DNA from: Candidatus Melainabacteria bacterium 17Bon1m
GTDB taxonomy: Bacteria > Cyanobacteriota > Vampirovibrionia > Obscuribacterales > Obscuribacteraceae
Direction: 5' to 3'
Length of the DNA stretch: 64,000 bases
NCBI GenBank assembly: GCA_032128875.1
Contig: JAVLKG010000003.1
Location: forward strand, 193,008-257,007
This document shows, piece by piece, positions 27,725 to 44,714 of this stretch. The translations under genes were made by a program, and so were the position numbers. The notes beneath the pieces were generated by a model, which worked only from the letters and a program-made list of their open reading frames with translations, was not told the origin of the DNA and did no database searches. Position 1 is the stretch's first letter; every line of letters begins with the position of its first letter.

Positions 27725-27808
27725 CATTGTGCTGCAGGTAAAGTTGCGGCAACGCCAGGTTCGTGCGCGTGGTCTGTTCGTGTGAGTAGATGACGCGTCG
27801 TTAGGTCG

Positions 27809-27841
27809 TGTCAACTCCATGTCAGATTGCCGTATTACAAA
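27809..27841 (+). promoter_or_regulatory. TGTCA-N6-TGTCA tandem box with weak -10
   Basis: TGTCA actcca TGTCA + 11 nt + TACAAA. Confidence 0.5.
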
Positions 27842-27891
27842 GAGAGGACAGCGCGCCTCTCTCGGCATACTTTCTGCTCATTGCACAAATA

Positions 27892-28536: not shown

Positions 28537-28779
28537 ACGATATTGTCCGAACACGTTTGAGCCTCTAATCAGTGTCCTAATCGATCAGTCTAAAGACTGA
28601 TTTTTGCCCGGGAAAATTTCATCCCTTAAACCCGATTTTTTTTGAAATTCTGAAAAGCCCGTGCGGCGGGAAAACGCTCACTCGGACGAGGGGTAAAGGG
28701 TCTGAGCGGGAATCTGTCAAGGGCGAGAACTGTTTTGTTGGTGACAGTATTTCTGTGAAACCCTGGGTATAAACGATCT

Positions 28780-28798
28780 ACGACAGACGGTCTGTCGT
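28780..28798. promoter_or_regulatory. Perfect 9-1-9 palindrome, candidate operator
   Basis: acgacagac-g-gtctgtcgt just downstream of TATAAA at 28768-28773. Confidence 0.55.
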
Positions 28799-29287
28799 TT
28801 TAGTAACATGTCTTGGTCTAGCCTGCCGGAGCCCTCGAGGTAATGGCAGGCTTTGCCATTTCAGGGGTTATTCTCTAACGATATTTACTAATTTCGCTAT
28901 GCGCGCTGTTAGCGAGTTGGTTCGCCTTGGCGCAATTAATGTTATGAACAACGCGAGTCGGGCCACTGATGCCGGGCTCACCTTATGAGCACTTTTACAC
29001 TGCCATATCGGCGCTCTTGGTATTACTTACCGATTTTTCACTGATGAAAGATGTTGAGAACGGTTAATTGCGCCAGCATTAAATTGAAAATGAATCGGAA
29101 GTGCGACACGTTCGATTTCTGAAAACCCTGAAGTGTGCAAAAGTTAGACGCACAGGCCCCCGCTTTCGTTGATTTGCAGAGACATCATCTGCAAGCCTTT
29201 GGCGTGTTTTTCTTTAGACCGCAAAGGAGTGTCTTCGCGCAAGCAGGCAAGTTTTCCGACTTAACGTCAACTGTGAATGGAGGTCGC

Positions 29288-30253
29288 ATGACCTTTCTCG
29301 AACCATACTATCTCGTCTTGATCGCGCTGCTCGTACCAATCTTGTGGTTGGGGGCAAAACGCAGAAACTCGCTCGGACACTCGCAAGTGAACATCCACAT
29401 GCGGGTGATCGGCTTTTCTGTCTTGCGTCAGGCTCCATGGTTTATCTTCGCTCTGTTTTGGATCGCTGCGTGTGCAGCGCTCGCTCGACCCGTCTTGCCG
29501 CAAGTTGCGGAAAGGCAGACAATCGAGACGCGTGACATTGTGATTCAGACGGACATCTCTGGCTCGATGAGTGATCCGGTGGAAGGTAGTCGGCAATGGC
29601 CGCCACCGGCGCCTGGAACTTCTCAGACACCCACACGTATCGCAGCTGCAAGAGCCGCGGTGATCGACTTTGTGCAACATCGCGAAGGAGATCGCGTCGC
29701 TCTGCTATTTTTCAACGACGAGTCGTTCTATGGCTGGCCTCTCAGTCGCGACCTCGCCGTTGTGCTTCGTCGAGTTAGTGACATAGAGCGCTACGTCACC
29801 GGCGGCACCAACTTTGACAGTCCGCGTGGGGCTATTCAGGGCGCGATCGATCACTTTCGCGAAATGAGCGACGCGCAATCGCGAGTGCTGATTCTCGTCA
29901 CTGACGGGGAAGCTTCTATGGACCACCAGCGCTCTCAAGAATTAGTTCGGCAAATCGCCGAGCTGAATATTCGGGTCTATGTTCTGGGCGTCGGACCCGG
30001 CTGGGTCAACAACTCTGCGATGACGCGCGATTTGCGGCGCGTTGTCGAAACCGTAAACGGCACTATCATCCCCGTCGGCAACGACGCAGAGATGCGTGCC
30101 GCCTTCGATACCATCAATCAACTCGAGCGCTCTTCGGTACAGATCGAGCGCTCCGTAACCCATCTCGAAATCTACGGGCTCTTCGCCATTGCCGCCGCAA
30201 TTCTGCTGCTGTGCTATCTGGCAATTGGTGCCCTGATTCTCGAAGATGCATGA
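29288..30253 (+). CDS. Membrane-anchored VWA protein (BatA/MxaC-like)
   Basis: MTFLEP N-terminus, ALARP, MIDAS DISGS, GDRVAL, LVTDGE, C-terminal TM; GGAGG SD. Confidence 0.88.
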   Translation: MTFLEPYYLVLIALLVPILWLGAKRRNSLGHSQVNIHMRVIGFSVLRQAPWFIFALFWIAACAALARPVLPQVAERQTIETRDIVIQTDISGSMSDPVEGSRQWPPPAPGTSQTPTRIAAARAAVIDFVQHREGDRVALLFFNDESFYGWPLSRDLAVVLRRVSDIERYVTGGTNFDSPRGAIQGAIDHFREMSDAQSRVLILVTDGEASMDHQRSQELVRQIAELNIRVYVLGVGPGWVNNSAMTRDLRRVVETVNGTIIPVGNDAEMRAAFDTINQLERSSVQIERSVTHLEIYGLFAIAAAILLLCYLAIGALILEDA

Positions 30254-30263
30254 GGAGACTTCG

Positions 30264-30842
30264 ATGAAGATGAGCAGAAAGACCAGGGTTTTAGCCTGGG
30301 CAACAATGATTGGTTTGGGCGCGCAGCTGACAATATACGGCGTCAACATGGCGCAGTGGCGCAGCGAGCAGATCGACTTCTTTAATGCGGGCGTGTCCGC
30401 CTATCAGGAGGGGAACGCCGAGAATGCAGTCGAGTTTTTCGATCGCAGTCTCAGTGCTTATCAGCGCACGCTCAGCGCACCTTGGATGGAGCGCTTCGCC
30501 TATCCTCGGGCGGATGTAGAACTCGCTGCACGTGCCGCTTTCCTTAAGGGCATGGCGCACATTCGCTCTCAGCAGGCGGAGCCGGCGGTGGCTGCTCTGC
30601 GGCACTCTCTTCGGTTGAATCCCGGCAGAATGAATGCCTATTACGCTGCGGACGGCGACCGATTGAGCGAATTGTCGATGTTCGCTCGCTTCAATTTGGA
30701 GCTGCTTTTCAATCAGCGCCCGGATCTGGCTTATGCACAGGGCGCCGGTCGCAATGCGTCCGAAGGAGGACCGGACGCACAGCGTTTACCGGGGCAAAAC
30801 CCAGGCAACATGCCTGGTCCCGGTAATCGCGATGACCTATGA
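30264..30842 (+). CDS. Membrane-anchored TPR protein (BatC/MxaK-like)
   Basis: N-terminal TM, FNAGVSAYQEG, SLRLNP, ARFNLELL; GAGGAG SD. Confidence 0.8.
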   Translation: MKMSRKTRVLAWATMIGLGAQLTIYGVNMAQWRSEQIDFFNAGVSAYQEGNAENAVEFFDRSLSAYQRTLSAPWMERFAYPRADVELAARAAFLKGMAHIRSQQAEPAVAALRHSLRLNPGRMNAYYAADGDRLSELSMFARFNLELLFNQRPDLAYAQGAGRNASEGGPDAQRLPGQNPGNMPGPGNRDDL

Positions 30843-30854
30843 GGAGTAAATGTC

Positions 30855-31928
30855 ATGTTCGGCATTACTTTTCAAACGCCCCTGTTCATCGGCGGTGCGT
30901 TATTGCTGTCCGTGGTCGCCTCGATCTTTTGGTGGCTCGGATTTCGAGCGCGACAGGCTGCCCGTGCTGCATACGGAGAGGCTGTCCTGGTAAATCGTTA
31001 CAGCTCACCACTCAACCCGCGCAAGGAGGTGCTCTTTCTTTCCGGCTACACGGCAACCATGCTTCTACTGGGAATAGCCGCCGCCGGTCCGGTAATGCAG
31101 GGCTCTCCGGTATCGGTCAGCGCCGGCGCAATCGATGTCGTCGTTGTCACTGACGTTTCTCCAAGCATGGCGAGTGAGGAATATCGCTCGTTTATGCCCA
31201 GTCGCGATGGGGTGGAACCGTCACAGGTGCGAGGCGCGTACGGCAGCAGGCTCGATTTTGTGAAACACACGATCGAGTCGCGCATTATGGCTGCACTCTC
31301 CAACAACCGGCTGGGCATCGTCACTTATTCCGGGCTTGGTTTTACTCAGGCAGAACTCACGCACGATCACCCGTCGTTGCGATGGATTCTCCGGCATTGG
31401 ATGCCGATTGGTGGTGCCCCCGGCAATGGCTCGGATTTTGCTTCCGGTCTCAGAGAAGCGCTGATGCTGTATGGTGATGAGGCGCGCGAACGCGTGATTA
31501 TCCTCTTTTCCGACGGTGGGTTTACCGGAAGCAGAGACGATCTGCGCCAGGTCGTTGCAGAACTCGAGCGACTCGGAGTGCGCCTGGTGATTGTGGGAGT
31601 CGGCAGTGACGAACCGTCTCCGATTCCGCAGTACTCTTCTCTGGGGGAGTTGCGCGGCAATCTCCTGCGAAACGGGCGACCTGTGCTCACTCACTTCGAG
31701 GAGGAGCCGTTACTCGCTTTGCGTGCTGCGACAAACGGTGAGTACATTCGAATGGCGCCCGGTGACGCGCTGAATATTCGCTGGGCTAATGTGCTTGCCG
31801 GAGAAAGAGTGGAAATGGGAGAGAGGCATCTCTTCGCATTTCCTCTCTCGGCGGCACTCTTGCTGTTGTGTCTTTTGCAGATGCGCGGCATCTTCCGCAA
31901 GACCGAATCAATGAAGGAGAATAGCTAA
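30855..31928 (+). CDS. Membrane-anchored VWA protein (BatB/MxaL-like)
   Basis: DVSPSM MIDAS, SRLD, LFSDGG, VGVGS; N- and C-terminal TMs. Confidence 0.88.
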   Translation: MFGITFQTPLFIGGALLLSVVASIFWWLGFRARQAARAAYGEAVLVNRYSSPLNPRKEVLFLSGYTATMLLLGIAAAGPVMQGSPVSVSAGAIDVVVVTDVSPSMASEEYRSFMPSRDGVEPSQVRGAYGSRLDFVKHTIESRIMAALSNNRLGIVTYSGLGFTQAELTHDHPSLRWILRHWMPIGGAPGNGSDFASGLREALMLYGDEARERVIILFSDGGFTGSRDDLRQVVAELERLGVRLVIVGVGSDEPSPIPQYSSLGELRGNLLRNGRPVLTHFEEEPLLALRAATNGEYIRMAPGDALNIRWANVLAGERVEMGERHLFAFPLSAALLLLCLLQMRGIFRKTESMKENS

Positions 31929-33214
31929 TGTACGAGCGTTGTCGACAAACTCTGCTCTGCTTGCTTTCCGGACTGGCGCTTGCAGTGATACTGTGCGCGG
32001 TGCCGGTCGTCGTGTCTGTTTCTGCGCAGCCGATGCAACCCGGAACTCAACCTGGTGGTCCTGTGCCAGGGGTGCAACCGGGAATTCAACCTGGTGGTCC
32101 TGTGACAGGGGTGCAGCCGGGAATTCAACCTGGTGGTCCTGTGCCAGGGATGCAACCCGGAACTCAGCCGAGCCCATCTCGTGCTCCGGCAGACGTACGT
32201 ACGTCTGCGCAACTTGTGCCTGGCGTGGCGCTTGGTGATTGTGGTGATGTGACAGAAGCGATGGTCCGCACCTACTTTGCTGGTCGGAGTCCTGCCCGTC
32301 CACCCAATCCCGCGACCAAAGCGTGTGAAGGTGGACGCATCCAAATGCGCGTCGAGGCTGCTCGGCACTTCGGTAATCGCATCATGGATCCTGTTCGCGT
32401 GACGGTTTTGCTCAATTTCGAGCCGACTACGATCATCGACCTTGACTCGCTGCGGAGAGGAACCCTCACTTTCAACGGACAGGAGTTCGATCTGGTTTGG
32501 CCGACTGCGCTGCTCTCCGGTCAGTCGCCCGTCAATGTTGAGATGCGGCATATGCGCAATGGCAGCGTTTTGCTGAAGATAGACCTTCTTCTGCAGAGTT
32601 CTGTTCCATCATCGGTGGCACCGTATTTGGTGTTTCGTTTGGACCTTCGCTATGCGATGGGCAACATTCGTGACGCTCAGGGGCAAGCAACGACATCTCC
32701 CGATTGGCGTGTTCTCTCGACACCGCTTCTTGGGTTGACCTTGTCACCAACCGCTACAGCCGGCGATCAATTCCGCGATTTCGCAGTTGAGCCTGTTCCG
32801 CAAGTCATGCCGTGGCCGACTTTGTGGTTGCTCATCGTGGGTATTGCTTCGGTGCTGTTCCTTCCCGGGCTTGTGGTTGTGCGATGGATCAATCGCCTTC
32901 GTCCGGGTCGGCAGGTTTCCCGCGAGGAAATCGCATGGCGCACAATCGACGCAGTGAACGCGTCAGCGAGAGAGAGCGATGGCTATCACAAGCCGCACTT
33001 TCGGCGTATTGCGGATGCTGTCCGTGCATATTTCGGACTGCGGTCGGCAACGATCTCCGAGGTGCAATCGCGTCTTTCAACACATCCGCATCTTGCGGAC
33101 ATTGTGGATGTACTTCGCTCATGTGACGGCATTCTGTTCGAAGATGGCGCCATCAATCAGCGCGAGGTGCAAGCACTTCGACGCAAGCTGGAGTTGATCA
33201 TCCCTCGTCCGTGA
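31928..33214 (+). CDS. Exported/membrane protein (MxaA/BatD-like)
   Basis: Signal peptide, Pro/Gly/Gln repeats, RHFGNRIMDPV segment, C-terminal TM plus helical tail. Confidence 0.7.
   Translation: MYERCRQTLLCLLSGLALAVILCAVPVVVSVSAQPMQPGTQPGGPVPGVQPGIQPGGPVTGVQPGIQPGGPVPGMQPGTQPSPSRAPADVRTSAQLVPGVALGDCGDVTEAMVRTYFAGRSPARPPNPATKACEGGRIQMRVEAARHFGNRIMDPVRVTVLLNFEPTTIIDLDSLRRGTLTFNGQEFDLVWPTALLSGQSPVNVEMRHMRNGSVLLKIDLLLQSSVPSSVAPYLVFRLDLRYAMGNIRDAQGQATTSPDWRVLSTPLLGLTLSPTATAGDQFRDFAVEPVPQVMPWPTLWLLIVGIASVLFLPGLVVVRWINRLRPGRQVSREEIAWRTIDAVNASARESDGYHKPHFRRIADAVRAYFGLRSATISEVQSRLSTHPHLADIVDVLRSCDGILFEDGAINQREVQALRRKLELIIPRP
32033..32170 (+). repeat. 36-bp coding tandem repeat, three full copies and one partial
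   Basis: Encodes (M/V)QPG(T/I)QPGGPV(P/T)G. Confidence 0.9.
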
Positions 33215-33227
33215 TTATCTGTCCGGT

Positions 33228-33269
33228 CGTGAAGTCCTCGGCAGTCTCTTCTGCAGAGGACTTCACGAC
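33228..33269 (+). terminator. Hairpin after the VWA operon
   Basis: cgtgaagtcctc...gaggacttcacg inverted repeat. Confidence 0.55.
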
Positions 33270-33316
33270 TTCACCAATGAAAAGACCGGAGCACTGTCTC
33301 TGGCATTGCGAAGCGA

Positions 33317-33400
33317 AGGGGCGACGCCATGCGTCGCCCTATACGCGTAGTGGCGCATTGCATGCGCCTTTCGCGCGGCCTGTATTAATGCCGCCCCTAC
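33317..33400. repeat. GTAG-type REP cluster
   Basis: gggcgacgccatgcgtcgccc, gtagtggcgcattgcatgcgcc, and gccgcccctac end. Confidence 0.8.
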
Positions 33401-33700
33401 GGAAAATCGCGCAACATTCGCAGCACCTTCTTTTGGAATTTGGCGTCAATTCTGAAACAACACAGGGCATCAACCCTGTTTGCTGAGTTCATATTTCCTT
33501 GCGCATGCGATACGAAAAGAGATAGTAGAGTTCTTTGTCCGCTCCCGTCAGGGTTTGCTCAATTTAAAGGACAGCGGCGTGGAAGAGCACTGGTAGTGAA
33601 ACAATGAACAGGTGAATCTGGTTCGGAAGAGGATTGCAATCAGAGTTATGCACGCCCAGAGCATGCCCTGATTTATTGGTGTAGAGAATAAGATCAACTA

Positions 33701-34471
33701 ATGACTAAGATTAGTACAGCTGAGTTATCGTCGCGCGAATCACTTAGACGTGAGTGCCTGATTAATAGGCCGTTCGGACAAGAAAGCTATCTGGAGTCAA
33801 TTGCGAAGACAGCGGCTCTCAAAGAAATAGAGTTGGGTGGCACTAAATGTGGCTATGTGCTTGTCAAAGACGAATGTATTGTCGAATTCTTTCTTTTCCC
33901 AAGCTGCGAAGCTAAAGTCCGCGAAGTGATGGTTGCGGTTGTTGAAACCACCGGCGCAAAAACAGCCCTTTGCCAGTCATTCGATGTTCCTCTAAGAGCT
34001 GCTTGTGAAGGGTTTTCTTGGGATTCAAAACCTGTCGGTTTTCTGTTTCGCGAATTCGACAAGTCCCTTTTAGGTTCCAACTTGATTGCCAAATTGGCTA
34101 ATCAATCTCAAATACCTGAGGTATTGTCGATTCATGACGGTTTTTTTGATGACGAGGATGAGATTTGTTTTTACCTCCAGCAAAACGCTAGACTTTTCAT
34201 ATATCGGCACGGTGAGACTCCAGTAGCATGCGGCATCGTCAAACAAGTAGTTGAATGTCGCAATGATTATGATGTTGGTATGGTGGTGGCACCAAATGAA
34301 AGGGGGAAGGGCTATGGAGCTCAGGTCGTCAACCATCTGAAGCATTTCTGTATTGCTCAAGGATGGAATCCCATCGCAGGTTGTAGTGTGGATAATCCTG
34401 CCTCTAAGCGCAGCTTGGAACGCGCTGGTTTCGTCAGCAAACATCAACTCATAAAATTTACTCGTAGCTGA
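33701..34471 (+). CDS. GNAT-family N-acetyltransferase
   Basis: VGMVVAPNERGKGYG and NPASKRSLERAGF. Confidence 0.88.
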   Translation: MTKISTAELSSRESLRRECLINRPFGQESYLESIAKTAALKEIELGGTKCGYVLVKDECIVEFFLFPSCEAKVREVMVAVVETTGAKTALCQSFDVPLRAACEGFSWDSKPVGFLFREFDKSLLGSNLIAKLANQSQIPEVLSIHDGFFDDEDEICFYLQQNARLFIYRHGETPVACGIVKQVVECRNDYDVGMVVAPNERGKGYGAQVVNHLKHFCIAQGWNPIAGCSVDNPASKRSLERAGFVSKHQLIKFTRS

Positions 34472-34537
34472 GTTCGTTGCGAATCGGGTGAATGATGTTT
34501 GTATTTCTCTGAAGAAACATACCTGGTATAAAGCGTG

Positions 34538-34650
34538 AATAAACGGCGAAGCCGTCGCTTCGCAGCGCCGGCTCACCTCCCTTTCTTTCCTTTGCAAAAC
34601 CTTTTGCTTAGCGCTTGCGAGTCGCGTTTCGCATCACGCAATCAATCCGT
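34538..34650 (-). ncRNA. Candidate small structured RNA
   Basis: Follows a conserved box plus -10; no conventional ORF; ends in hairpin GGUGAGCCG-G-CGCU-GCGA-AGCG-A-CGGCUUCGCC followed by GUUUAUU. Confidence 0.45.
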
Positions 34651-34656
34651 ATAAAC

Positions 34657-34689
34657 AGAATAGGCATCGAAGCTGACACCTAGTTGACA
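34657..34689 (-). promoter_or_regulatory. Tandem-box promoter, copy 1
   Basis: Minus strand TGTCA actagg TGTCA + 11 nt + TATTCT. Confidence 0.75.
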
Positions 34690-34729
34690 CCATATCCGGC
34701 ACTACGAAGTTTATCTCTCCGCATGCGAA

Positions 34730-34757
34730 TAACCGAGGCAGTAGCCTGCCCCGGTTA
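34730..34757 (-). terminator. Terminator-like hairpin after the LysM gene
   Basis: taaccgaggca-gtagcc-tgccccggtta inverted repeat. Confidence 0.6.
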
Positions 34758-34823
34758 TATCCCCTGCTGAGAAATCCGTTTGTTGTTAGTTACTCTTTAT
34801 TAGTTGTGCGTTGTTCTACGATG

Positions 34824-35870
34824 TCACTGGCGGCGCGTGACCCAGCCTGTAACTCTGCCGGTTCTGTCTGTGGCAATCACATGATTGTTGCCATCGCCGG
34901 TGGCGATTGTAGTTGTGTAATTACCAGTGCGCGGATCCATTACCGTTTCTGCAGAGCGCACACCTTGCAACTGACGTGTTCCGTATTGATCGCGAACATT
35001 CATGTCGATGCCTTCGCCGCTGTAGCGGACGTTAGAGCGAACGATTTCGCCTGTTCTGCGATCGGTCTCTTGCATCACTTGCGCTGTCGGCGGGCTGCTG
35101 AATAGGTAAGTGCCGTTTCTGACCGGAGCTTCGTATGTTCTCACATTGCGTTCACCGGCGGGCGCAGTGTAATCGTTCGTGCGTTCTCCTTCCCTCCAGC
35201 GAGCGCCGTTCTCGCGTCCTGGTTCAACCTGACCGGGCAATCGCATCGGGTGGTAATTTTCAGCACTCGGAGTCAGACCTGGATTGGTATCACCGACGCC
35301 GCGAGAAGCTTCCGGGCGTGCCCGGTCTCTAATCGATGGAATTGTCAGCTCTGTTCCGACGCGCACATTGTTGGTGTCGCGCAGGCGGTTGGCTTGACCG
35401 ATTGCTTGAACCTGTTCGTGAATGTCCCGGAGTGACGGTTCAGAGCCAGTTTCTGCTCTCAGTCGTTGGCGTGCGATGTGCGACAGCGTGTCGCCGGGAC
35501 GAATTGTGTAACGTGTCGATCCGTCACCCTGATCTCTAAAGTCACGTTCGCCATTCGGTGTGACGCGACCTTCCGGAGTGCGGCGTTCTGACACGACAGC
35601 GCCGGTTCTGCCATCACGAACTTGTTCGCTGCGACCATCTGAGCTGCGCGTGATCAACTGTCCGTTGTTTGCACCCATAATTTGAATGTCGTCATTGCCT
35701 GCAAATCCAAGGCGGCGCATGTCGACGCGATCGTTGATTGCCTGACGTTCGCGCGCCCACGATGCGGGGTTGCGCTGCAGTTCTTCGACCTGCCTTGTGA
35801 TGGCGCTGATGTCTCGTCCATCTGTTCTTTCGAGTGCTGTTGCAACTCTGTCCACTTCTTGGTTTCGCAT
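34824..35870 (-). CDS. LysM-domain protein, lysine-free, paralogue A
   Basis: YTIRPGDTLSHIAR...ANRLRDTNNVRVGTELTIP LysM; AGGAG SD; no signal peptide. Confidence 0.88.
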   Translation of the reverse strand: MRNQEVDRVATALERTDGRDISAITRQVEELQRNPASWARERQAINDRVDMRRLGFAGNDDIQIMGANNGQLITRSSDGRSEQVRDGRTGAVVSERRTPEGRVTPNGERDFRDQGDGSTRYTIRPGDTLSHIARQRLRAETGSEPSLRDIHEQVQAIGQANRLRDTNNVRVGTELTIPSIRDRARPEASRGVGDTNPGLTPSAENYHPMRLPGQVEPGRENGARWREGERTNDYTAPAGERNVRTYEAPVRNGTYLFSSPPTAQVMQETDRRTGEIVRSNVRYSGEGIDMNVRDQYGTRQLQGVRSAETVMDPRTGNYTTTIATGDGNNHVIATDRTGRVTGWVTRRQ

Positions 35871-35989
35871 TTGTGACTCTCCTGGTAAATAACTGCCGAG
35901 TGGCTTTCTATGGGGATGTCGGGGTGAGTAGGATCAGCGAACATGTAAGTTGTTCGCTTAGATTGCTGGGGGAAGTGCTTTCGATTATG

Positions 35990-36022
35990 AGATTATCATC
36001 GGTAGTTGCCACCAAGATGACA
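35990..36022 (-). promoter_or_regulatory. Tandem-box promoter, copy 2
   Basis: Minus strand TGTCA tcttgg TGGCA + 11 nt + TAATCT. Confidence 0.8.
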
Positions 36023-36080
36023 TGACCGAAAGCAGCTTCCTGCAACCTTTCTATGTTTCCCTGCGCTGCGTCTGCGCTCC

Positions 36081-37190
36081 TTAACGCGATTCGTAGTTGG
36101 TCACGCGACCCGATCTGCCGTCGGTGCGGAAGGTGTGACGACGTCCGCTTTGCTCGACAATCTCGGTTGTGTAGTTACCGTCTTGTCCGCGAGTCGTCGT
36201 TGCTGTGCGCGGTTCTGCAATGACCACATCATTGCGTCCACCGGCTCCTTGTGGAACCTGAACACGAATCGGTTCTACAATTTCCGGATACGTTACTTGT
36301 GAGCGAACGACATTACCTTGCCTGTCGAGAATGCGTTCAACACTGGATGGTGCAAATCCATTTCCTCCAACCGTCACTTGGTACTGTTGTCTAGTGGAGC
36401 CGTCCGGCAATTGTGTTTGACGCACGGACGCTGGATTTAGCCTTTCTTCGGGCAAACCACTGGTAGTGTTGTCGCGACCCGAGCCTGTTCTTCTAATTGT
36501 TTCTTGTCTCGCTGCTCCCGGCTCCGTGTTGAGTCCTGGGACAATCAACGGATGGCTGACATTGCGTGGTAATTCTTGTGCCTGACGTTGCAGGTCTGCT
36601 TGTCTCAGTGGCTGGACTTGTTCGCGCTGTGGTGTGCCGGCGGGCGGAGTTGCTTCAGGTGCGCGTTCTCCCGGTCGTGGGACGCGGATTTCTTGACCCG
36701 GGCGAATGCGATTAGGGTCTTGGATGCCGTTTAGCCTGGCAAGTTCTCTGTAATCGTTAGTAATTTCCTGCGGAGTAGGTGTGCGCCCGTGCTGAGCGGC
36801 CATGCGCTCCCTGGAGATACTCCAGAGCGTGTCACCTGGTCTAACTGAATAACGGGCGGTTCCATCTGGCTGTTGCTGAAACTCGCGCGGCGCTTGCGCT
36901 GAAACTATTTCAAAGGTTCGGCCATCTCTTTCGACGCGACGTCCGTCTGGATTTCTTGTTTGGACTCTGCCACCTTGCCCAAGACCAGTGATCTCGAAGT
37001 CGACGTTATCGGGAAAACCAAGTGCACGCATATCAACACGCTCATTGAGCGCGCGCAAATTCTGTGCAAACGCGCGAGGGTTTTCTCTCTGCATTTGCTG
37101 CAGTTCGGCCGTAACAGCTGAGAAGTCTTGACCCTGGCGGGTGTTTTCCAGGCGTCGTGTAACGTTTTCGAGTGGTTGTTCGGGAGGCAT
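36081..37190 (-). CDS. LysM-domain protein, lysine-free, paralogue B
   Basis: YSVRPGDTLWSISR...LNGIQDPNRIRPGQEIRVP LysM; AAGGAG SD; shares N(D/E)RVDMR.LGF and VRS.V.Y / GNYTT.I segments with paralogue A. Confidence 0.88.
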   Translation of the reverse strand: MPPEQPLENVTRRLENTRQGQDFSAVTAELQQMQRENPRAFAQNLRALNERVDMRALGFPDNVDFEITGLGQGGRVQTRNPDGRRVERDGRTFEIVSAQAPREFQQQPDGTARYSVRPGDTLWSISRERMAAQHGRTPTPQEITNDYRELARLNGIQDPNRIRPGQEIRVPRPGERAPEATPPAGTPQREQVQPLRQADLQRQAQELPRNVSHPLIVPGLNTEPGAARQETIRRTGSGRDNTTSGLPEERLNPASVRQTQLPDGSTRQQYQVTVGGNGFAPSSVERILDRQGNVVRSQVTYPEIVEPIRVQVPQGAGGRNDVVIAEPRTATTTRGQDGNYTTEIVEQSGRRHTFRTDGRSGRVTNYESR

Positions 37191-37296
37191 TAGCGATACT
37201 CCTTTAGGAACGTGAAAGCGGCAGCCTCACTCGAACTGACTCGATGTGTGAGATGCGCTGTAACAGGGGAGAGAGATAAAGAACTTCGATGCCTAA

Positions 37297-37329
37297 AGAT
37301 TACTGTTTGAAGTTGCCACCAAGTTGACA
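37297..37329 (-). promoter_or_regulatory. Tandem-box promoter, copy 3
   Basis: Minus strand TGTCA acttgg TGGCA + 11 nt + TAATCT. Confidence 0.8.
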
Positions 37330-37434
37330 TGGAAAGGGTTGGCGAAGAAAAACTCTCACCACACCAAAAAGAAGAGACGGGTCGCTGGGTCCATCTCTCC
37401 TATTGGCTGGTGCATTGGGCTGTCGAACAAAGCT

Positions 37435-38223
37435 TTAGAACTTTTCGCTGAGGGTTCGCGAGAAGGTCGGATTAATTGGCAGCCTGATGCGTGAAGGTGC
37501 ACCTAGCTGCTCGCTGCGCGCGGCAATGCTTTCAGGGCTGATATAGCGCCCTTCATCGCCGTTCCACAGGAAGTTGGCAATCGTATTGAAGAATCCATTG
37601 CTGTTGGCTAAAGCGGGCGCATCATTTAATAGCGTCCTTATCGCTGCGTGCTGTTGCTTGTTGAAATACTCTGGGTTTTGTCCGGCCGCCTCACGCAAGG
37701 CGCCAACCTGAATTTGGTTGTTGTCTGCGACACCGTCTGGATTTATCTTCCTCATCATCGCGACTAGATCATCATATTGTTTCGCCGCAGCTTGCGTACT
37801 GCGTGCCTCCGGCATCAAGCCATCTTTGATGCCGGCACGAACTTCGTCGCGTGTGATGTGGTCACGATTGGTTGCGGTCATGTAATCGAGAGCTCGTTGT
37901 GCTCCCATCACAGCCAAATTGTCGCGCGTCGATTCCGGCTGGCGTTGCTGGTTTCGGATGTAGCTAGTAAGTTCGTCGCGTTCGACAACACCGTTGCCGT
38001 TTCCACCTAAATCGATGCGGTTAAACCGCTGGTTAAGCGTTTCAATCATCAAACCACCAACCAGACCTTGCTCTTGCATTTGACGGGATTGGGCAACGAT
38101 TCTCTCCGCAGCAGAGCCAGGCGCCGCCGGCTGAGCGTAACTCATGGCGGCTAAAGACGCCCACGCGTCGCTGGATGCTGGAGGTGCAGCGCAGTCCTCC
38201 TGGATGTCCTTAAATTTGCTCAT
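37435..38223 (-). CDS. Hypothetical protein with EF-hand-like loop
   Basis: FNRIDLGGNGNGVVERDEL; GAGGAG SD. Confidence 0.75.
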   Translation of the reverse strand: MSKFKDIQEDCAAPPASSDAWASLAAMSYAQPAAPGSAAERIVAQSRQMQEQGLVGGLMIETLNQRFNRIDLGGNGNGVVERDELTSYIRNQQRQPESTRDNLAVMGAQRALDYMTATNRDHITRDEVRAGIKDGLMPEARSTQAAAKQYDDLVAMMRKINPDGVADNNQIQVGALREAAGQNPEYFNKQQHAAIRTLLNDAPALANSNGFFNTIANFLWNGDEGRYISPESIAARSEQLGAPSRIRLPINPTFSRTLSEKF

Positions 38224-38270
38224 CAAATCTCCTCTCAGCGCGAGCTGAAAAACAAGCGAGTGTTCTTGAA

Positions 38271-38573
38271 CTAGCGATACAAGTATGGAATTTCCAGCTC
38301 AGGAGTTTGAACTTGAGACTTCGGTCCACCATCACGCTGAACTTTGATCAAATTACCTTGCTCGTCTTGTTTGAACAAAATTGGATCGCACTTCATCGAA
38401 TATTCAGCTGAAGAGCCGCCCTTTTGAAAGCCTTCTTTCATTTTTAGGTTGAAGTTGGCAGTGGATTTGTCACACATCAGATCTGCTACTTGGTTGCTGA
38501 TTGCCATTGCATCTTCTGGTATGGCAGACACCCCAAGAGCGCATTTTTTCTCGTTGAATTCTAAGTGTTTCAT
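38271..38573 (-). CDS. Small hypothetical protein (100 aa)
   Basis: AAGGAA SD before ATG 38573; short gap to the next minus-strand gene. Confidence 0.65.
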   Translation of the reverse strand: MKHLEFNEKKCALGVSAIPEDAMAISNQVADLMCDKSTANFNLKMKEGFQKGGSSAEYSMKCDPILFKQDEQGNLIKVQRDGGPKSQVQTPELEIPYLYR

Positions 38574-38739
38574 TGTTATTTCCTTTATCAGTGTTTGATG
38601 AGCGTGCTTAGTGCGCATGGCGGGGTGTCGCGCACATGCTGCGGTGCATTGGGTTTTGAAGTCTTACTATCGAGCTATCGAAGGAGCGAACGGAGGATGT
38701 GCCTCCAAGCTTGATTGCGTTTAATCCAGCTGTACATGC

Positions 38740-38772
38740 AATTTACGATCCGTTTCTGACATGAACTTGACA
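38740..38772 (-). promoter_or_regulatory. Tandem-box promoter, copy 4
   Basis: Minus strand TGTCA agttca TGTCA + 11 nt + TAAATT. Confidence 0.75.
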
Positions 38773-39098
38773 CGGCTTGTCGGAAACGCGCGGAGGCTGA
38801 GCGTAGCAGCAAACCGTTGAAGTCGGACGAGAGAAGGGCGCCGAGGAGGCGTCCGTAGCGAGTAGAGGTAGCGCGCGGAAGATGAGCGTAGCGAATCTGG
38901 AGCGCTTATATAATGTCCAAAAGCGCCTAGCTGCATGCAGCCAGACGCTTATGAATGATCCCCGAAAGTTGGTTTTTTGTTTGGTAGGCGCAATCGCGCG
39001 CCTCGTGTAGAGCACCACAAATTTTGGTGCCATTACATATGGTGCCTCGTTTTGTCTAAGTTAGAATGGGGCTTAGTTGCCGAGGTAAGTGCAAGTTC

Positions 39099-39395
39099 TT
39101 AGTCGAGGGGGTGCCAGGCTCCATAACGGTCGCCCATCCAAAGTGAGCTATTCGCTGCGCGGACCATCGTGTAAGAGTCGAGATGGCGGACAAGGGCTCC
39201 AGAATCATAAGAGGCTGCTTTGATCTTGCCGGCTTCATCCTGTTCTACGAACAACTCTTGCATTCGCACTGCATTCGCCGTGTTCAGGTCGAGCGAATAC
39301 CTTTTATATTCTTGCGACTGCGGAGGGACAAAACTCAAGCTGCTGTGTTGAGAAGTTTCCGTATTGCTTGAGTGAATGTCGTTGGAATGAAACAT
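39099..39395 (-). CDS. Small hypothetical protein (98 aa)
   Basis: GAGAGG SD; lies downstream of promoter copy 5. Confidence 0.6.
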   Translation of the reverse strand: MFHSNDIHSSNTETSQHSSLSFVPPQSQEYKRYSLDLNTANAVRMQELFVEQDEAGKIKAASYDSGALVRHLDSYTMVRAANSSLWMGDRYGAWHPLD

Positions 39396-39565
39396 CGGGC
39401 TGCCTCTCGGGGTTCTTAAAAACTGGGGGGCTGTTGTTGGTATTTAATCGACTAATTGTTTCCGAGCCGTTAAACGCGTCTTGATGCACTCCAATCAATG
39501 CAACGCCTAGCTTCGCGGCTTGCGAGCGTTTATCAATTGGTGCGCTATCGGTTTTGGACACCCTT

Positions 39566-39598
39566 AACGTATCAAATGAATTTGACATTGAGATGACA
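39566..39598 (-). promoter_or_regulatory. Tandem-box promoter, copy 5
   Basis: Minus strand TGTCA tctcaa TGTCA + 11 nt + TACGTT. Confidence 0.72.
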
Positions 39599-39705
39599 TA
39601 GGTAAAAACGCCACCAGCGCCAGAATTCTTTGAGCTTTTGGTCGGACGAGCAATAAAAATGAAACAACCGGCGATTACATTTAGCCTATTACTAGGATTC
39701 ATGCC

Positions 39706-41172
39706 ATGCCCTCAACTCACCGAGCGAACGATAATGTCGCGCCAGGCGGCGATAACTATAGAGCTCCAAACCGTTTGGAGACCGAAGGTGTCGGCTACAT
39801 CTCCGGTGGCTGAGGCGGCGGTGGCTGCCGCCCACCAGGTGGTGGGTCCGAAGTTCCAAGAGGTTCGTTGCCCGGTCTGGAGATAAGCCAGGGCACGATT
39901 AATCCGGAAGCGAATCAGACTTGGTTTGGACCTGACGGTGAGATCAAGTATGGAACTGCCATCGAGAAAGCTCAATTCGACGCAACTGTAGGCGTCCAGG
40001 GTTCTGAGAAAGCAAAGAAAGCGAAAGCAGGGAAGCCCGAAGGCGCCGCGGATGAGAAAGAAGCCGAAGGCGATGGCAAAAACGGCGAAACCGCCACTGA
40101 AAAGTCTGAAGAAGAGAAGCTCCAAGATGCATTGAAAGCCGCTTACGATAGGGGTGTTCCTGCGGTCGTCGCATTTGGTTCGCAATCTGCCAAAGATACT
40201 GAAAAACTTCTTGGCACTCTCGACCAAAACATGAAAAATGGGAAAGCAGACTTTATATATGCCGACACGGACAAGCTTGACCCCAATTCAGAACTGGGGC
40301 AAGTCGCTCGTCGCAGCGAAGAAAAGGGACAGGGGCTTGGTGCTGATGGAAAGGCAGACCTGGCTTTCACTGGCGTCTATAAAGTCGAAAAGGGCGCAGA
40401 CGGCAAGTACCACATTGGAAATTCTGTAGCTACTTTCTGGGGCGGTCGCCCGGAAATCGCCGGAATCATGAATGATCAACTCAAGTATGCGTCGCGCGAT
40501 GTTTCTGAGGGCAACGGCTCTGATGTAAGACCTGCACCGGGAGCCGATGTTCGCCCACCTGGTGGAGACGGTGGTAACGGCTCTTCCAATGGAGAACGTC
40601 CAGCAATTGAACCTCCAAAGACAGAAGAAGAAAAAGCGGCCGCAGAAGAAAAGGCAAAAGCAGAAGCTGCTGAAAGAGCAAAAGCCACTGAAGAGAAAGC
40701 CGCGAAAGAGGCTGCTGAAGCCGAACGCGTAAAACAGTTTTCCGACAAACCTTATTCTATGGACCAGTATAAGGAAGGTTGGGGCCGAGCTTTAGATCGT
40801 GCTGGAATGGAAGCCGGACCTATGAGGGATGCTGTCGATAAGCTCGGTCAACAAGTGTTATCCGGTCAATTAGATGGAAAAGAAATTGCTGGGCTAATGG
40901 GTCAGTTAGAAGGGCTAGAGCGTGGAGAGGCAGCCCAGATGCTGGCTGGTGTAAATCAAGAACTGAAAGATCGTGGTGTTGCGATCAGTGCCACGGTCAA
41001 AGACGGCAAGATTCAATCTATGGAAATGCGCGCTGATAATGGAAACGTTTTGGTGCGTGTCGATCAAAATGGCAACGTGACTGCCACCAACAAGGGAAGT
41101 GCAAATCCGGAAAGCCCTGAACAAATTTCTCTGCGTCTGGCTAAGAAAATTGAGCCGGACGCATGCCCCTGA
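39706..41172 (+). CDS. Hypothetical protein with degenerate thioredoxin-like segment; one in-frame TGA at 39811-39813
   Basis: AGGA SD 8 nt before ATG 39706, in frame with ORF 39868-41172; AAYDRGVPAVVAFGSQSAKD...FIYADTD lacks CxxC. Confidence 0.6.
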
Positions 41173-41299
41173 AACGGCTAGCGACACTTGAAACCGTGCG
41201 TTTCAATAACTAATTTCAAATGAATTATCTTAGACTACCAACGAAGTTTTGCCTTCGCTTGGCGCTAAGGGGTGGGAAGAGTAGAGCATCGTGCGCCTC

Positions 41300-41848
41300 T
41301 CAAGAAAATAGCCGTTCTGCGGTTGCCCAGTAAAGGCACTCTTCGGCATTGCAACGCATAGCATAGTCAACCATCTCTGCAAGTTCTGGGGGAACCAAGC
41401 TTATCAGTTTGCCCTCGCCACAATAAGCAGGGAAATACATTAGCCAAGTATCCCACGGAGGAATATTCTCCAGATCGAAGTATCCGTTACTGACTGAGGC
41501 TGCTGCGCCATCTGAAAGGTTTGTCCCCGGAAGATACACAAGAAATTTGTGGGTTGTATCGTTTACAGAGGCTGTCGCTGGATGTCCGCCCGCATCGGCA
41601 AGGAGTTTCGCACGACGATCTGACAGAGTATCCACCCACGATCGTCGACTATCTTCATTAGCACGTAACTGATTCCAATCAGAGGCAGAACGCGTTACAT
41701 CCCAGGACGGTGCCCAGTCAAATGGTACTGGTGGTGTGCCAAACTCGATGCTCCTCAGGCTGTTGTGCAAATCGTTAACCGAGAGACGCATAGCGCACCA
41801 CTCTCGAGTTTCTGCAACTCGCTGCCAAAATACTTGTTCACTACCCAT
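41300..41848 (-). CDS. Hypothetical protein
   Basis: 182-aa ORF with NLSDGAA...GYFDLENIPPWDTW motif-like stretch. Confidence 0.7.
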   Translation of the reverse strand: MGSEQVFWQRVAETREWCAMRLSVNDLHNSLRSIEFGTPPVPFDWAPSWDVTRSASDWNQLRANEDSRRSWVDTLSDRRAKLLADAGGHPATASVNDTTHKFLVYLPGTNLSDGAAASVSNGYFDLENIPPWDTWLMYFPAYCGEGKLISLVPPELAEMVDYAMRCNAEECLYWATAERLFS

Positions 41849-41962
41849 GTATCATTACTCAGAATCTCGGCTTTGATAAGTTTTGGCTTGCCCGATAGCG
41901 CTGTTGAGATTGATAGAACAAGAGCTTTTAAATCAATCAAAATGATGTTTCGCTTGATGAAT

Positions 41963-43408
41963 TCAGTTCGCCTTCGAGCACGCCACGTCGCGGACTTGTC
42001 CCTTAAGGACGGGAACTAATTTCTCGTCGATCATTTTTTCCGCTTTCTTCAAATCAATCTCTTCTGCACTTTTGATGCCTTTGCAGAGTTCTCCGACAAT
42101 TTCATCAATGATGACGCCTGCGTCGCGACACACAGAATAGGGTGTGTGCGTGAAGGTAACAAGCGCATAGCGAGATGCAAACTTGTCGGGGAAGTTTTTC
42201 TCCAACACTTTTTCTGCGGCTTTCTGAAGCAAGAATTCTGGTTGCCCTACTTTGTCGCGCATTTCGATGAAGTTTTCGATTGCCATTTGCGCAATCGCAT
42301 CGGCATTAGGTTTTCTCGACTCGTCGAATTCGAGAAAGAGAGCTTCCCAATCCAAAACATCATCAGGCTGCAAATATTTTGTCAGCAAATCTTCGAATAC
42401 GGTAAGGTCTTCGAACGCGCAGTTGGCACCTTGTCCGAAGAATGGCACGATTGCGTGAGCGGCGTCACCGACTAGAAGAACTCTGTCTTTGTAGTGCCAT
42501 GGTTTTGTCGTAACGGTGACCATGCTGCCGGTGGGGTTGTGGAAGAAAGTTTCTTCCGGTTTGTCGAACATTCCATAGGCGTCTGCAAAGTCTGTTTTGA
42601 AGAAGTTGCTGACGGCGTGCTCGTCTTTGAGTTTTTCAAAACACGGCGAGCCGTTGATGGATTCATAGGGAAGGAAGAGTGTGCAGGTGAAACTGCCATC
42701 GAAGTTAGGCAGGGCGATGATCATATAAAGCCCGCGCGGCCAGATGTGGAGAACGTTCTTCTCCATGGCAAATTTGCCGTCTTCGAGAGGCAATACAGCG
42801 AGTTCTTTGTATCCGTAATTCAAATAGTCTTGCTTGCACGGATAGCCGGCTTTCTCTGTCATCGTTTCGCGAATCTGTGATGCAGAGCCGTCAGTGCCGA
42901 TGATGAGGTCGAATGTTTCTTCGTGCTGAGTTTTGTCTTCTTCGTTTTGGATTGTAAGTGTGTTTGTTTCCAAATCGATATTTGTAACGCGCTGGTTGAA
43001 TTTAATTGTCACTGCACCGGCTTTCTCCGCAGCGGTCATGAGGGTTTTGTTCAACTCCCCGCGTGAGACTGAATTGCCAAATTCTGAATCATCTCGACCG
43101 TAAGGTTGATAGGTTGTTTCTCCCGTTCTCGAATGCATTAGACGTCCCATCATGGGCACTGAGTCCTTGAGAATTGTTGCTTCCAGCCCTGCTTTCTGAA
43201 GCGCTCGCAGTCCCCGACGCGTGATGTTCAAGTTGATCGAACGTCCCGCGCTGATTTCCGCGACACGCATATCAGGACGTCTTTCGAGCATGGTAACTTT
43301 CATGCCGCGGCGAGCTAGGAAGACCGCCAAAAGCGAGCCTGTAAGGCCGGCACCGACAACGCAGACGTGTGTGTCGGACAATTTCTTCGTGAGTTTTTTA
43401 AGTGACAT
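41963..43408 (-). CDS. kmo: Kynurenine 3-monooxygenase
   Basis: VGAGLTG, GRSINL, LHIWPRG..M.IALPN.DGSFTCTLF, GDAAHAIVPFFGQG. Confidence 0.95.
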   Translation of the reverse strand: MSLKKLTKKLSDTHVCVVGAGLTGSLLAVFLARRGMKVTMLERRPDMRVAEISAGRSINLNITRRGLRALQKAGLEATILKDSVPMMGRLMHSRTGETTYQPYGRDDSEFGNSVSRGELNKTLMTAAEKAGAVTIKFNQRVTNIDLETNTLTIQNEEDKTQHEETFDLIIGTDGSASQIRETMTEKAGYPCKQDYLNYGYKELAVLPLEDGKFAMEKNVLHIWPRGLYMIIALPNFDGSFTCTLFLPYESINGSPCFEKLKDEHAVSNFFKTDFADAYGMFDKPEETFFHNPTGSMVTVTTKPWHYKDRVLLVGDAAHAIVPFFGQGANCAFEDLTVFEDLLTKYLQPDDVLDWEALFLEFDESRKPNADAIAQMAIENFIEMRDKVGQPEFLLQKAAEKVLEKNFPDKFASRYALVTFTHTPYSVCRDAGVIIDEIVGELCKGIKSAEEIDLKKAEKMIDEKLVPVLKGQVRDVACSKAN

Positions 43409-44714
43409 GCTCGCCTACTGCTTTTGCAAAGTGGTATACATCTTCGAAGGTGTTGTACATCGGTGTTGGTGCGGCCCGCATAATGTCGGGCTCGCGGAAA
43501 TCGCAAATGACGCCCTTTTCGCCAAGTTTTTTGACGAAGTCTTTTGGCTGTGTTTTCAGTTTGATCGAAAGTTGCGAACCTCTTTGTGCAATATCTTGCG
43601 GCGTGATGACTTTGAAAAAGTCACCGCCAATATCGCTCAGCAAGAATTCCAAATATGCTGTGAGCACATCTCCTTTGCGCCGGAGATTAGCCATTCCAGC
43701 CTTGTCGAATAGTTCCATTGAAGCGCGCAATGCTGCCAATTGAAAAATGGGCGGGTTGCTCAGTTGCCAGCCTTCGGCACCAGGGATAGGGTCAAAAGTT
43801 GGTCCCATTTGGAAGCGAGTCTTCTTGTCGTGCCCCCACCAACCGGCAAATCTAGGCAGCGAAGTGTCTCTCGAATGCCGCTCGTGGACAAAACATCCGG
43901 CAAGTGAACCAGGACCGGAGTTGAGATATTTGTAGCTGCACCACATCGCAAAATCGACATCGTCGTCGTGCAATTTTAGATGCAGATTGCCTGCGCCGTG
44001 CGCTAAATTGAAACCAGCTAATGCGCCGACCGAATGCGCTTTCGCAGCAATCGCCTTCATGTCGAATGCTTGACCGGTCAAGTAATTGACGTTGCCCAGC
44101 ATGACGAGTGCAAGTGATTGGCCTTCCTTTTCGATCGCCTGCAAAATGTCCTCGGGGCGTAGCGTATACTCCCCGTCGCGCGGCTTCAGTGCGACGACAG
44201 CGGTGCTCGGATCGAAGCCGTGAAATTTTGCTTGCGAATCTACAGCGTATCTATCAGATGGAAATGCATCTGCTTCGATGATGATTTTGTAGCGTTCTTT
44301 TGTAGGGCGATAAAAGGAAACCATCATCAAGTGCAGGTTTACCGTGAGGGTGTTCATGATCACCACCTCAATCGGTTTGGCACCAACCAATCGAGCTGCC
44401 ATTTCAGTCAAGTTTTCGTGGTATGGCAACCAGGGGTGACGAGCATCCCAATGCCCTTCAACGCCGTGCTTAGCCCAATCATCGAGTTCTGCGCCTATGT
44501 ATTCACGCACTCGCACCGGCTGCAAGCCCAAAGAGTTTCCCGCCATGTAAATCCATTCCTTGCCGTCTTTGGTCTTCGGAATCAGATATTCTTTGCGAAA
44601 CTCCGCGAGTTCGTCCTTCTTATCCAGACTGCGAGCAAATTCCAAATCGTTCTTGAATTGATGCTTTGAAATAGTTTCGGACGATTCTGCTAATTCTGCT
44701 CGCTGACTAGACAT
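43398..44714 (-). CDS. kynU: Kynureninase
   Basis: GNSLGLQP, MNTLTVNLHL, FPSD, WCSYKYLNSGPG, GWWGH; probable start MSSQ at 44714. Confidence 0.95.
   Translation of the reverse strand: MSSQRAELAESSETISKHQFKNDLEFARSLDKKDELAEFRKEYLIPKTKDGKEWIYMAGNSLGLQPVRVREYIGAELDDWAKHGVEGHWDARHPWLPYHENLTEMAARLVGAKPIEVVIMNTLTVNLHLMMVSFYRPTKERYKIIIEADAFPSDRYAVDSQAKFHGFDPSTAVVALKPRDGEYTLRPEDILQAIEKEGQSLALVMLGNVNYLTGQAFDMKAIAAKAHSVGALAGFNLAHGAGNLHLKLHDDDVDFAMWCSYKYLNSGPGSLAGCFVHERHSRDTSLPRFAGWWGHDKKTRFQMGPTFDPIPGAEGWQLSNPPIFQLAALRASMELFDKAGMANLRRKGDVLTAYLEFLLSDIGGDFFKVITPQDIAQRGSQLSIKLKTQPKDFVKKLGEKGVICDFREPDIMRAAPTPMYNTFEDVYHFAKAVGEHVT

Follow-up and report, generated by a model that had tools for sequence, protein, structure and literature searches.

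The window analysed here is a 64-kb stretch of DNA (contig C3:193008-257007) from Candidatus Melainabacteria bacterium 17Bon1m, a non-photosynthetic relative of the cyanobacteria whose lineage comprises widespread, uncultured bacteria of groundwater and drinking water. The source genome spans 7.55 Mb in 35 contigs with a guanine-plus-cytosine (GC) content of 0.499, and is 93% complete with a contamination estimate of 4.5%. Two tandem genes on the minus strand of the window encode LysM paralogues that share 33% identity in a full-length comparison: paralogue A (34824..35870; 348 amino acids (aa); gene GC 0.566) and paralogue B (36081..37190; 369 aa; gene GC 0.549). Neither protein contains a lysine (K) or a cysteine; A contains 53 arginine (R) and 21 asparagine residues, and B contains 51 and 19, respectively. 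An earlier note on this DNA, made from the sequence alone, had reported the absence of lysine and cysteine, the richness in arginine and the lack of a signal peptide, and the coordinates of the open reading frames (ORFs) and the residue counts proved exact. No hydrophobic segment was found in either protein (maximum Kyte-Doolittle 19-residue means of -0.03 and 0.27), and in-frame stop codons lie immediately 5' of both start codons, so that no signal peptide is hidden there. The sequence AGGAG precedes the ATG of both genes and is conserved; for A, it lies 9 nt before the ATG in five of five species. Neighbouring genes have an ordinary lysine content (41 of 434 residues at 39868-41172 and 37 of 481 at 41963-43408); the same note had called the first of these, among others, lysine-rich. 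Our analysis confirmed that the absence of lysine in A and B is real, and showed it to be stronger than was first noted.

A Pfam search recognised only the LysM domain (PF01476) in the two proteins, and no catalytic domain. This domain covers residues 121-178 of A (35337..35510, minus strand; E 5.6e-8, 33 bits against a cut-off of 20.9) and residues 114-171 of B (36678..36851, minus strand; E 5.3e-11, 42.7 bits against the same cut-off). LysM domains bind glycans that contain N-acetylglucosamine, such as peptidoglycan and chitin, and membership of this family suggests that A and B would do so as well. An AlphaFold2 model of B (md6e7189fc61a), built from a 42-row alignment, had a mean predicted local distance difference test (pLDDT) score of 79.4. 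It begins with an N-terminal helical bundle at residues 6-57 (37020..37175, minus strand; helices 6-16, 24-36, 38-51 and 54-57; pLDDT of the block 68-88), in whose region N49, V52, D53, G58 and F59 are near-invariant in the family alignment. The bundle is followed by beta hairpins (residues 66-115), the LysM domain (approximately 112-170), a disordered proline-rich linker (176-190) and a C-terminal antiparallel beta-sheet domain of ten strands (residues 249-368; 36087..36446, minus strand; pLDDT 80-95). The modelled LysM domain has the beta-alpha-alpha-beta fold (strand 112-115, helices 122-134 and 140-153, strand 167-170) and superimposes on 4uz2_A with a Z of 7.3 and a root-mean-square deviation of 1.2 A over 48 aligned residues, with 44% identity. 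For the C-terminal domain of B, we found no clear relative among solved structures (best Z 6.3; Foldseek E of at least 4e-3), and template-modelling scores in the Atlas were below 0.5. The remark of the earlier note that arginine stands at LysM positions usually held by lysine was borne out by the family alignment, in which lysine-normal homologues read Y-V-T-K-x-G-D-T-L-W-S-I-A-K and lysine-free members Y-S-V-R-P-G-D-T-L-W-S-I-S-R.

Lysine and arginine make up 6.06% and 5.34%, respectively, of the proteome, which we took as 5767 ORF-genes from a crude caller rather than a proper gene caller (minimum ORF length 100 aa; scoring on codon usage; greedy thinning of overlaps). The binomial probability of a protein without lysine is 3.6e-10 for A and 9.6e-11 for B. 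Genes in the GC bins from 0.54 to 0.58 contain 4.7-5.0% lysine, and the pair thus lies far off the trend; the view that GC content does not account for the missing lysine held up. AGR codons make up 25% and 31% of the arginine codons in the pair, compared with 26% genome-wide, and 106 and 121 codons (30-33%, compared with 21% genome-wide) are one mutation away from AAA or AAG. The mutational supply of lysine is therefore high and the codon dialect is native.

Four further species of the genus have orthologous loci, on contigs of metagenome-assembled genomes filed as Candidatus Melainabacteria or Obscuribacterales (L001-L004, seen again as G087, G092, G088 and G097). The tandem pair is syntenic and lysine-free in all five species. 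In the four relatives, the orthologues of A are 89-98% identical to it and contain no lysine or one, the lone lysine lying within an upstream ORF extension, and the orthologues of B (84-98% identity) contain none. The database orthologues P0002-P0004 likewise lack lysine, P0005 (68% identity to B) contains one, and L020, which is 48% identical to A, contains no lysine and 56 arginines. Among the variable columns of the orthologue alignments, lysine occurred in 0 of 190 for A and 1 of 140 for B (1 of 330 jointly), in contrast to 64 of 488 (13%) in seven lysine-normal flanking genes of the same loci. Arginine exchanged with lysine in 1 of 104 cases in the LysM pair and in 19 of 68 in the flanking controls; columns and species are not independent in these counts, but the contrast is very large all the same. 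The orthologues thus carry the avoidance of lysine that the earlier note had asked about, and its proposal of purifying selection against lysine found strong support in the difference from the flanking genes. We conclude that purifying selection very probably keeps lysine out of the LysM pair. The exclusion has been maintained across species and across a paralogue split of approximately 30% identity.

Of 107 genomes of the order that were searched for the family, 60 gave matches, many of them to LysM only, and 54 homologous ORFs from 50 loci were collected. Of 38 members with the full architecture, 18 have at most two lysines (and 36-59 arginines), 16 have 17-43 and four have 8-10; cysteine is absent from nearly all family members, and genomes with the lysine-free pair also encode lysine-normal paralogues. 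When 1.84 billion representative sequences were searched with a profile, 77 matches at E<=1e-30 were obtained; in this analysis the family was found in Obscuribacterales (Melainabacteria) only. When 33 representatives (clusters at 50% identity) that were full-length, in that one match spanned most of the profile, were sorted by K/(K+R) into bins of 0.1, the counts were 8, 1, 0, 2, 1, 7, 6, 6, 1 and 1, which leaves a clear gap. Lysine-free members contain 0.1% lysine and 13.5% arginine, and lysine-normal members 7.1% and 5.4%; the sum of the two is 13.6% and 12.5%, respectively, and all other residues differ by no more than 2.6 percentage points. At 14 columns that are mostly lysine in normal members, arginine was by far the commonest residue (127), followed by glutamine (30). 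The bimodal family and the constant K+R therefore indicate a one-for-one exchange of lysine for arginine.

We built the family tree with lysine recoded as arginine, so that the trait itself could not draw rows together. Fifteen of the 18 lysine-free rows fell into one clade (Shimodaira-Hasegawa-like approximate likelihood ratio test support of 99), which also holds two lysine-normal rows and one lysine-low row, and a second lysine-free clade (L013, L015 and L017) is sister to L018 (K38, R2). The lysine-free label requires five changes on the tree, at least three of them being forced by well-supported branches; 500 shuffles of the label gave a mean of 13.0 changes and none as low. These results show that in one deep clade every lysine was exchanged for arginine while the total of K+R remained unchanged. 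L018 itself (G019:C25, ORF 985-2160; cluster P0021) is a full-length, mirror-image member of the family, and its composition suggests that avoidance of arginine may also occur among these LysM proteins.

These data bear directly on two simple explanations. A compositional artefact, through recent import from a high-GC donor or through the plain GC trend, would be in keeping with the GC content of the genes (0.55-0.57, compared with 0.50 for the genome), with the slightly GC-rich stretch from 30 to 38 kb and with the low lysine content of an adjoining operon of vWA and TPR genes. It is already contradicted, however, by the lysine retained in other genes of the same GC content, by the genome-like use of arginine codons, by the nesting of lysine-free clades among lysine-normal homologues of the same order and by the synteny of the lysine-free state in five species; moreover, the replacement of AAR by CGN or AGR codons would by itself raise the GC content in this way. 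We regard it as very improbable. Chance, or ORFs that are not coding, has nothing in its favour beyond the general frequency of spurious ORFs, and is already refuted by probabilities near 1e-10 for each protein, the significant LysM matches, the confident AlphaFold2 model (mean pLDDT 79) and the conservation of orthologues, ribosome-binding sites and promoter blocks, leaving it a negligible probability. The absence of lysine is accounted for neither by GC bias nor by foreign origin or chance.

The earlier note had further suggested that a separate lysine-free class might exist in the proteome, and one emerged: the K/(K+R) histogram of proteins of at least 200 aa has 23 entries at 0-0.10 and only 15 at 0.10-0.20. 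We assembled the class by eye from 31 ORFs (at least 150 aa, K/(K+R) below 0.12), keeping 12 that were hydrophilic, contained at least 7.4% arginine and had a gene GC of no more than 0.57. The 19 that were dropped comprised three membrane proteins of the vWA/TPR operon, ORFs with a GC of about 0.59 or more that were possibly antisense or contaminant, and ORFs that were short or poor in arginine; the high-GC (0.59-0.66) lysine-poor ORFs on contigs C7, C8, C13 and C19 may be antisense ORFs or may mark contaminant contigs. The 12 class genes are scattered singletons among lysine-normal genes, and none has an obvious signal peptide. Pfam identified Trypsin_2, Ntox44, Peptidase_C2 with EF-hands, and glycine zippers (in two proteins), and five members had no match. 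The ORFs C6:21565-23091, C11:148608-149795, C1:1025602-1026861 and C5:23312-24313 are lysine-poor, consist mostly of short repeats rich in arginine, tyrosine, aspartate, glycine and glutamine (RDQYG, YDRYGR), and for the most part have no Pfam match. As to a shared N-terminal motif, which the earlier note had raised as a possible mark of the class, an hhalign comparison of the LysM family with the glycine-zipper family was not significant (E 0.008, probability 4.8%); an [LIVMF]EL[FVILM]D motif of three class members was dropped, as it occurs in 31 proteins of all kinds.

Two class members could be followed through their families. The HtrA-like protease at C5:260993-261904 has zero to three lysines at five loci (down to 39% identity) and two to seven in four ORFs, whereas 17 more distant homologues, including a paralogue in the source genome with 22, have 15-35. 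The 534-aa protein at C10:39402-41006 has no lysine or one in four full-length orthologues (60-87% identity), and in a fifth genome it is represented by two ORF pieces with zero and two; 20 homologues at 29-34% identity contain 20-63. It has an invariant Q175, C180, H403 and D420 and a papain fold that matches several clan-CA peptidases with Z values of 9-11.6. The split into lysine-free and lysine-normal members was thus supported in all three families tested (LysM, HtrA-like and papain-fold). We considered the papain-fold protein as a transglutaminase, and rejected this identity: it matches Alr0975, C39 peptidases, PeiR, a CdiA-CT toxin and UfSP/ZUFSP about equally (Z 9-11.6), and no specific assignment can therefore be made. 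Its papain-fold domain (relatives L089-L113) corresponds to no Pfam family and is greatly expanded in the taxonomic family, in which 94 of 104 genomes together gave over 650 matches (as many as 14 scored in a single genome); it sometimes shares a protein of 1000-1200 aa with LysM. The loci C10:41189-43090 and C3:157591-159207 also belong to the peptidases of the class.

A biophysical need for arginine, in which the guanidinium group rather than its charge is required, for instance for binding polyphosphate, wall polymers or nucleic acids or for Arg-Tyr condensation, would account for a K+R that stays constant while lysine falls to zero. It would also suit the several class members that are repeat proteins rich in arginine, tyrosine, aspartate and glycine, and LysM proteins bind polymers. 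A binding preference should, however, shift gradually, whereas the family shows an all-or-none gap; furthermore, none of the variable surface positions in folded domains admits lysine, and the same purge is seen in enzymes of three different folds. We consider a need for arginine quite unlikely as the cause.

Promoter-like blocks lie upstream of both LysM genes on the minus strand. The block of A (35977..36024) reads CATGTCATCTTGGTGGCAACT ... TAATCT ... ATCGAAAG and is near-invariant in five of five species while its flanks diverge; the block of B (37284..37331) reads CATGTCAACTTGGTGGCAACT ... TAATCT ... ATCGAAG and is conserved in the same five. Their common pattern is CATGTCA(A/T)(C/G)TTGGTGGCAACT, followed by TAATCT and then ATCGAA, and it is located 120-155 nt 5' of both genes. 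A sigma-70 scan upstream of A returned GTGGCA-17-CATAAT at 36012-35984. The direct-repeat appearance of the block (GTCAAC and GGCAAC, 11 bp apart) hints at a regulator of the OmpR/PhoB type, one of which is encoded within the window at 27044-27724. Related (C/T)(A/G)TGTCA-N2-3-TTG elements are conserved 5' of the orthologues of the HtrA-like protease and of the papain-fold protein. CATGTC precedes 5 of the 12 genes of the class and 189 of all 5767 genes, and the expression [AG]TGTCA.{2,3}TTG precedes 3 of 12 and 22 of 5767; the patterns were chosen post hoc and two of the matches are paralogues, so that the enrichment is suggestive only. The idea in the earlier note that the class shares a TGTCA promoter therefore stands in part, in that the element is common to three unrelated lysine-free families, but the enrichment statistics behind it are post hoc. 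An element common to three families suggests co-regulation.

Such co-regulation would also be expected of a set of lysine-sparing isoforms, that is, a regulon for translation when lysine or charged and intact tRNA-Lys is scarce, as during starvation or attack by an anticodon nuclease. Lysine-free and lysine-normal paralogues of three unrelated families lie side by side in the same genome, this explanation needs no export route and so fits the missing signal peptides, and an organism that forages for amino acids could make good use of peptidases and of lytic or toxic proteins. The synthesis of lysine, however, is intact: LysA and DapA are present, which argues against lysine auxotrophy, and contain 5.8% and 8.3% lysine, which is ordinary and shows no economy of lysine in the pathway itself. 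The set also includes no housekeeping, biosynthetic or uptake function, and an Rfam search of 26000-46000 identified no riboswitch or other element. The limitation of Lys-tRNA that the earlier note had offered as a cause is weakened by the presence and ordinary composition of LysA and DapA, and we judge lysine-sparing isoforms to be an unlikely explanation.

The gene next upstream of the pair (37435..38226, minus strand) encodes a lysine-poor protein of 263 aa (K7, R21) with an EF-hand-like loop, for which the Pfam EF-hand_6 match was below threshold (E 0.065). It adjoins the pair in five of five species and lies beside a lysine-free family member in G090 (L049), and in G068 the family member (L023) carries a piece of it as a fusion. 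A recurring module, consisting of a G-L-x-(I/L)-(E/D) or P-E-L-x-I-x-G-(G/A) motif and an EF-hand-like loop, occurs in this neighbour, in a calpain-like protein (C3:157591-159207) and in large lysine-rich LysM proteins (C11:118061-124497); the motif resembles double-glycine leaders, by eye only. At 29135-33214 (plus strand) lies a lysine-poor four-gene operon (vWA, TPR, vWA and a proline-rich membrane protein), the vWA/TPR operon mentioned above, which we take to be Bat-like. Its products contain three or four lysines per 198-428 aa here and zero to six in the relatives, and 3-7% of their variable columns contain lysine, compared with 13% in the controls. Between this operon and A lies a GNAT acetyltransferase gene (33701-34471, plus strand; Acetyltransf_1, E 2e-10), which we considered as a lysine-acetylating partner. 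It is missing from the syntenic loci of all four relatives and therefore does not belong to the system, but has the look of an insertion specific to this strain. In three runs filed as transcriptomic RNA-Seq (X2-X4), the region lies inside contigs of 21-38 kb at a flat depth of approximately 24, so that these runs look like DNA rather than RNA and may represent the source sample. Only four short contigs came from a lake metatranscriptome (X19).

As to why lysine is avoided, the all-or-none pattern, the constant K+R and the lysine-free variable positions together suggest that any single epsilon-amino group is harmful, and a covalent process fits this better than a graded preference in binding would. 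The class comprises about five peptidases, a toxin domain, pore-type zippers and wall binders, a composition that suggests a toolkit which is released and acts outward, and the LysM domain and the near-absence of cysteine in the family suggest that the acting site is outside the cytoplasm. We therefore favour, as a possibility somewhat short of an even chance, the reading that the lysine-free proteins act outside the cytoplasm, where the lack of lysine shields them from lysine-directed cleavage, tagging or cross-linking. The peptidases, the toxin-domain protein, the glycine-zipper proteins and the wall binders would then form one co-regulated set that may be released by a non-classical route, possibly lysis, and would have as its target the cell wall or other cells, from without or within. 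At the acting site, the epsilon-amino group would be a liability owing to a lysine-directed covalent process, and the LysM pair may be the part that anchors the set to wall or chitin. As for that process, lysine-specific cleavage by a co-released or foreign peptidase is rather doubtful, ubiquitin-type tagging inside a eukaryotic target is a little more doubtful still, and cross-linking to peptidoglycan or other proteins appears distinctly improbable.

Several observations weigh against this reading. No lysine-specific peptidase was identified in the source genome. The lysine-free Trypsin_2 protein, tried as a candidate, had HtrA as its best match (E 4.7e-7), and the search of the PDB returned no lysyl endopeptidase; Aspzincin M35 and Peptidase_C25 gave no matches in the source genome, but their controls were silent too and the result is hence uninformative. 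The lysine-directed protease put forward in the earlier note thus has no counterpart among these matches. Four YkuD L,D-transpeptidases were found, but these are common and do not discriminate. Neither the Pup ligase PafA/Dop (PF03136; a Corynebacterium control was positive) nor JAB-type ubiquitin-like systems (Prok-JAB) had a match in the source genome. The same is true of export: VipB of type VI secretion, VirB4 of type IV secretion (CagE_TrbE_VirB) and Phage_sheath_1 gave no matches, with positive controls and with no search made for type III secretion, and WXG100, a marker of type VII secretion, and the C39 exporter peptidase (PF03412; control positive in seven genomes) gave none either. 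A divergent equivalent of C39 is possible, since the expanded papain-fold family resembles C39 domains in structural comparisons (Z 10.3-11.2). Thus no export route was found, although the genome is 93% complete. Evasion of ubiquitin, another cause named in the earlier note, is weakened by the lack of a signal peptide and of genes for type IV or type VI secretion or a contractile sheath. At an arginine content of 14-15%, moreover, ordinary trypsin-like enzymes would cut the proteins very readily, and we know of no eukaryotic host or prey of this lineage. Lysine-normal family members also lack a signal peptide, so that localisation alone cannot separate the two kinds. Finally, the class was assembled by eye from 12 of 31 ORFs, and the suggestive statistics of the TGTCA element are post hoc.

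A more specific form of the extracytoplasmic reading is that Obscuribacterales maintain a lysine-free 'shadow' set under common regulation, in which every protein has a lysine-normal twin and which comprises wall binders, peptidases of three kinds, pore-type glycine-zipper proteins and a protein with a toxin domain. It would have evolved as an antagonistic or predatory toolkit for sites where lysines are attacked, for example by ubiquitin tagging in eukaryotic prey or by a lysine-cutting enzyme of its own. We think this possible, and on balance doubtful. If true, it would be the first case of GC-independent, multi-family, adaptive eradication of lysine in bacteria, and would provide a sequence signature for spotting such toolkits in uncultured lineages. 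More generally, a 50% GC genome in which three families occur in both lysine-free and lysine-normal versions constitutes a natural control experiment that makes the purpose of lysine avoidance directly testable, and it points to a hidden, probably co-regulated functional class.

The LysM pair resembles several known systems in part. It shares the LysM fold and sequence motif with the N-terminal LysM domains of an NlpC/P60 endopeptidase of Thermus thermophilus (PDB 4uz2 and 4xcm), but A and B have no enzyme domain and no signal peptide, and their flanking domains have no clear solved relative. With the fungal LysM effectors Ecp6 and Mg1LysM, only the LysM fold is held in common (Z 6.1-6.3); the effectors have a signal peptide, are rich in disulphides and consist of LysM repeats only, whereas each protein of the pair has one LysM domain, additional domains, no cysteine and no signal peptide. 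The catalytic chains of pertussis toxin (S1), cholera toxin (A1) and ricin (A) are lysine-poor and exploit degradation associated with the endoplasmic reticulum. They share the near-total lack of lysine with retention of arginine, and act in a foreign cell; unlike the LysM pair, which has neither a signal peptide nor a recognisable catalytic domain, they have signal peptides, binding subunits and known catalytic domains. Cyanobacteria under sulphur starvation produce sulphur-depleted isoforms, in which methionine and cysteine have been eradicated from phycobiliproteins. These isoforms likewise occur as normal and depleted paralogues paired in one genome, with the depleted set apparently co-regulated and the residue almost fully removed; the missing residue there matches the limiting element, whereas the organism studied here retains the synthesis of lysine, with enzymes that are not poor in this residue.

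The usual explanations for lysine-free proteins are GC bias and avoidance of ubiquitin or Pup, and a study on lysine deserts was reportedly made by Szulc et al. in 2023. Our search of the literature, supplements excluded, turned up no published account of lysine-free proteins in Melainabacteria. In a 2026 review, a lysine desert is a lysine-free run of at least 150 residues or of at least 50% of a protein, and such deserts are described in proteins of the eukaryotic ubiquitin system and in Actinobacteria and their phages (PMC13696103). In the same review, the enrichment in Actinobacteria and mycobacteriophages is treated as confounded by GC content, and adaptation to Pup as an untested hypothesis (PMC13696103). 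By this definition A and B are lysine deserts, being lysine-free over their whole lengths of 348 and 369 aa. They agree with the deserts described there in being conserved lysine-free proteins or long regions that are read as avoidance of lysine-directed tagging; the bacterial cases printed there are from high-GC Actinobacteria and linked to Pup, whereas here the GC content is 50% and a Pup ligase was not found. The LysM pair differs further from known deserts in that lysine-normal paralogues are encoded in the same genome and the purge is common to at least three unrelated families; its distinguishing features are the neutral GC content of the genome, the involvement of several families, the pairing of paralogues and a common cis element.

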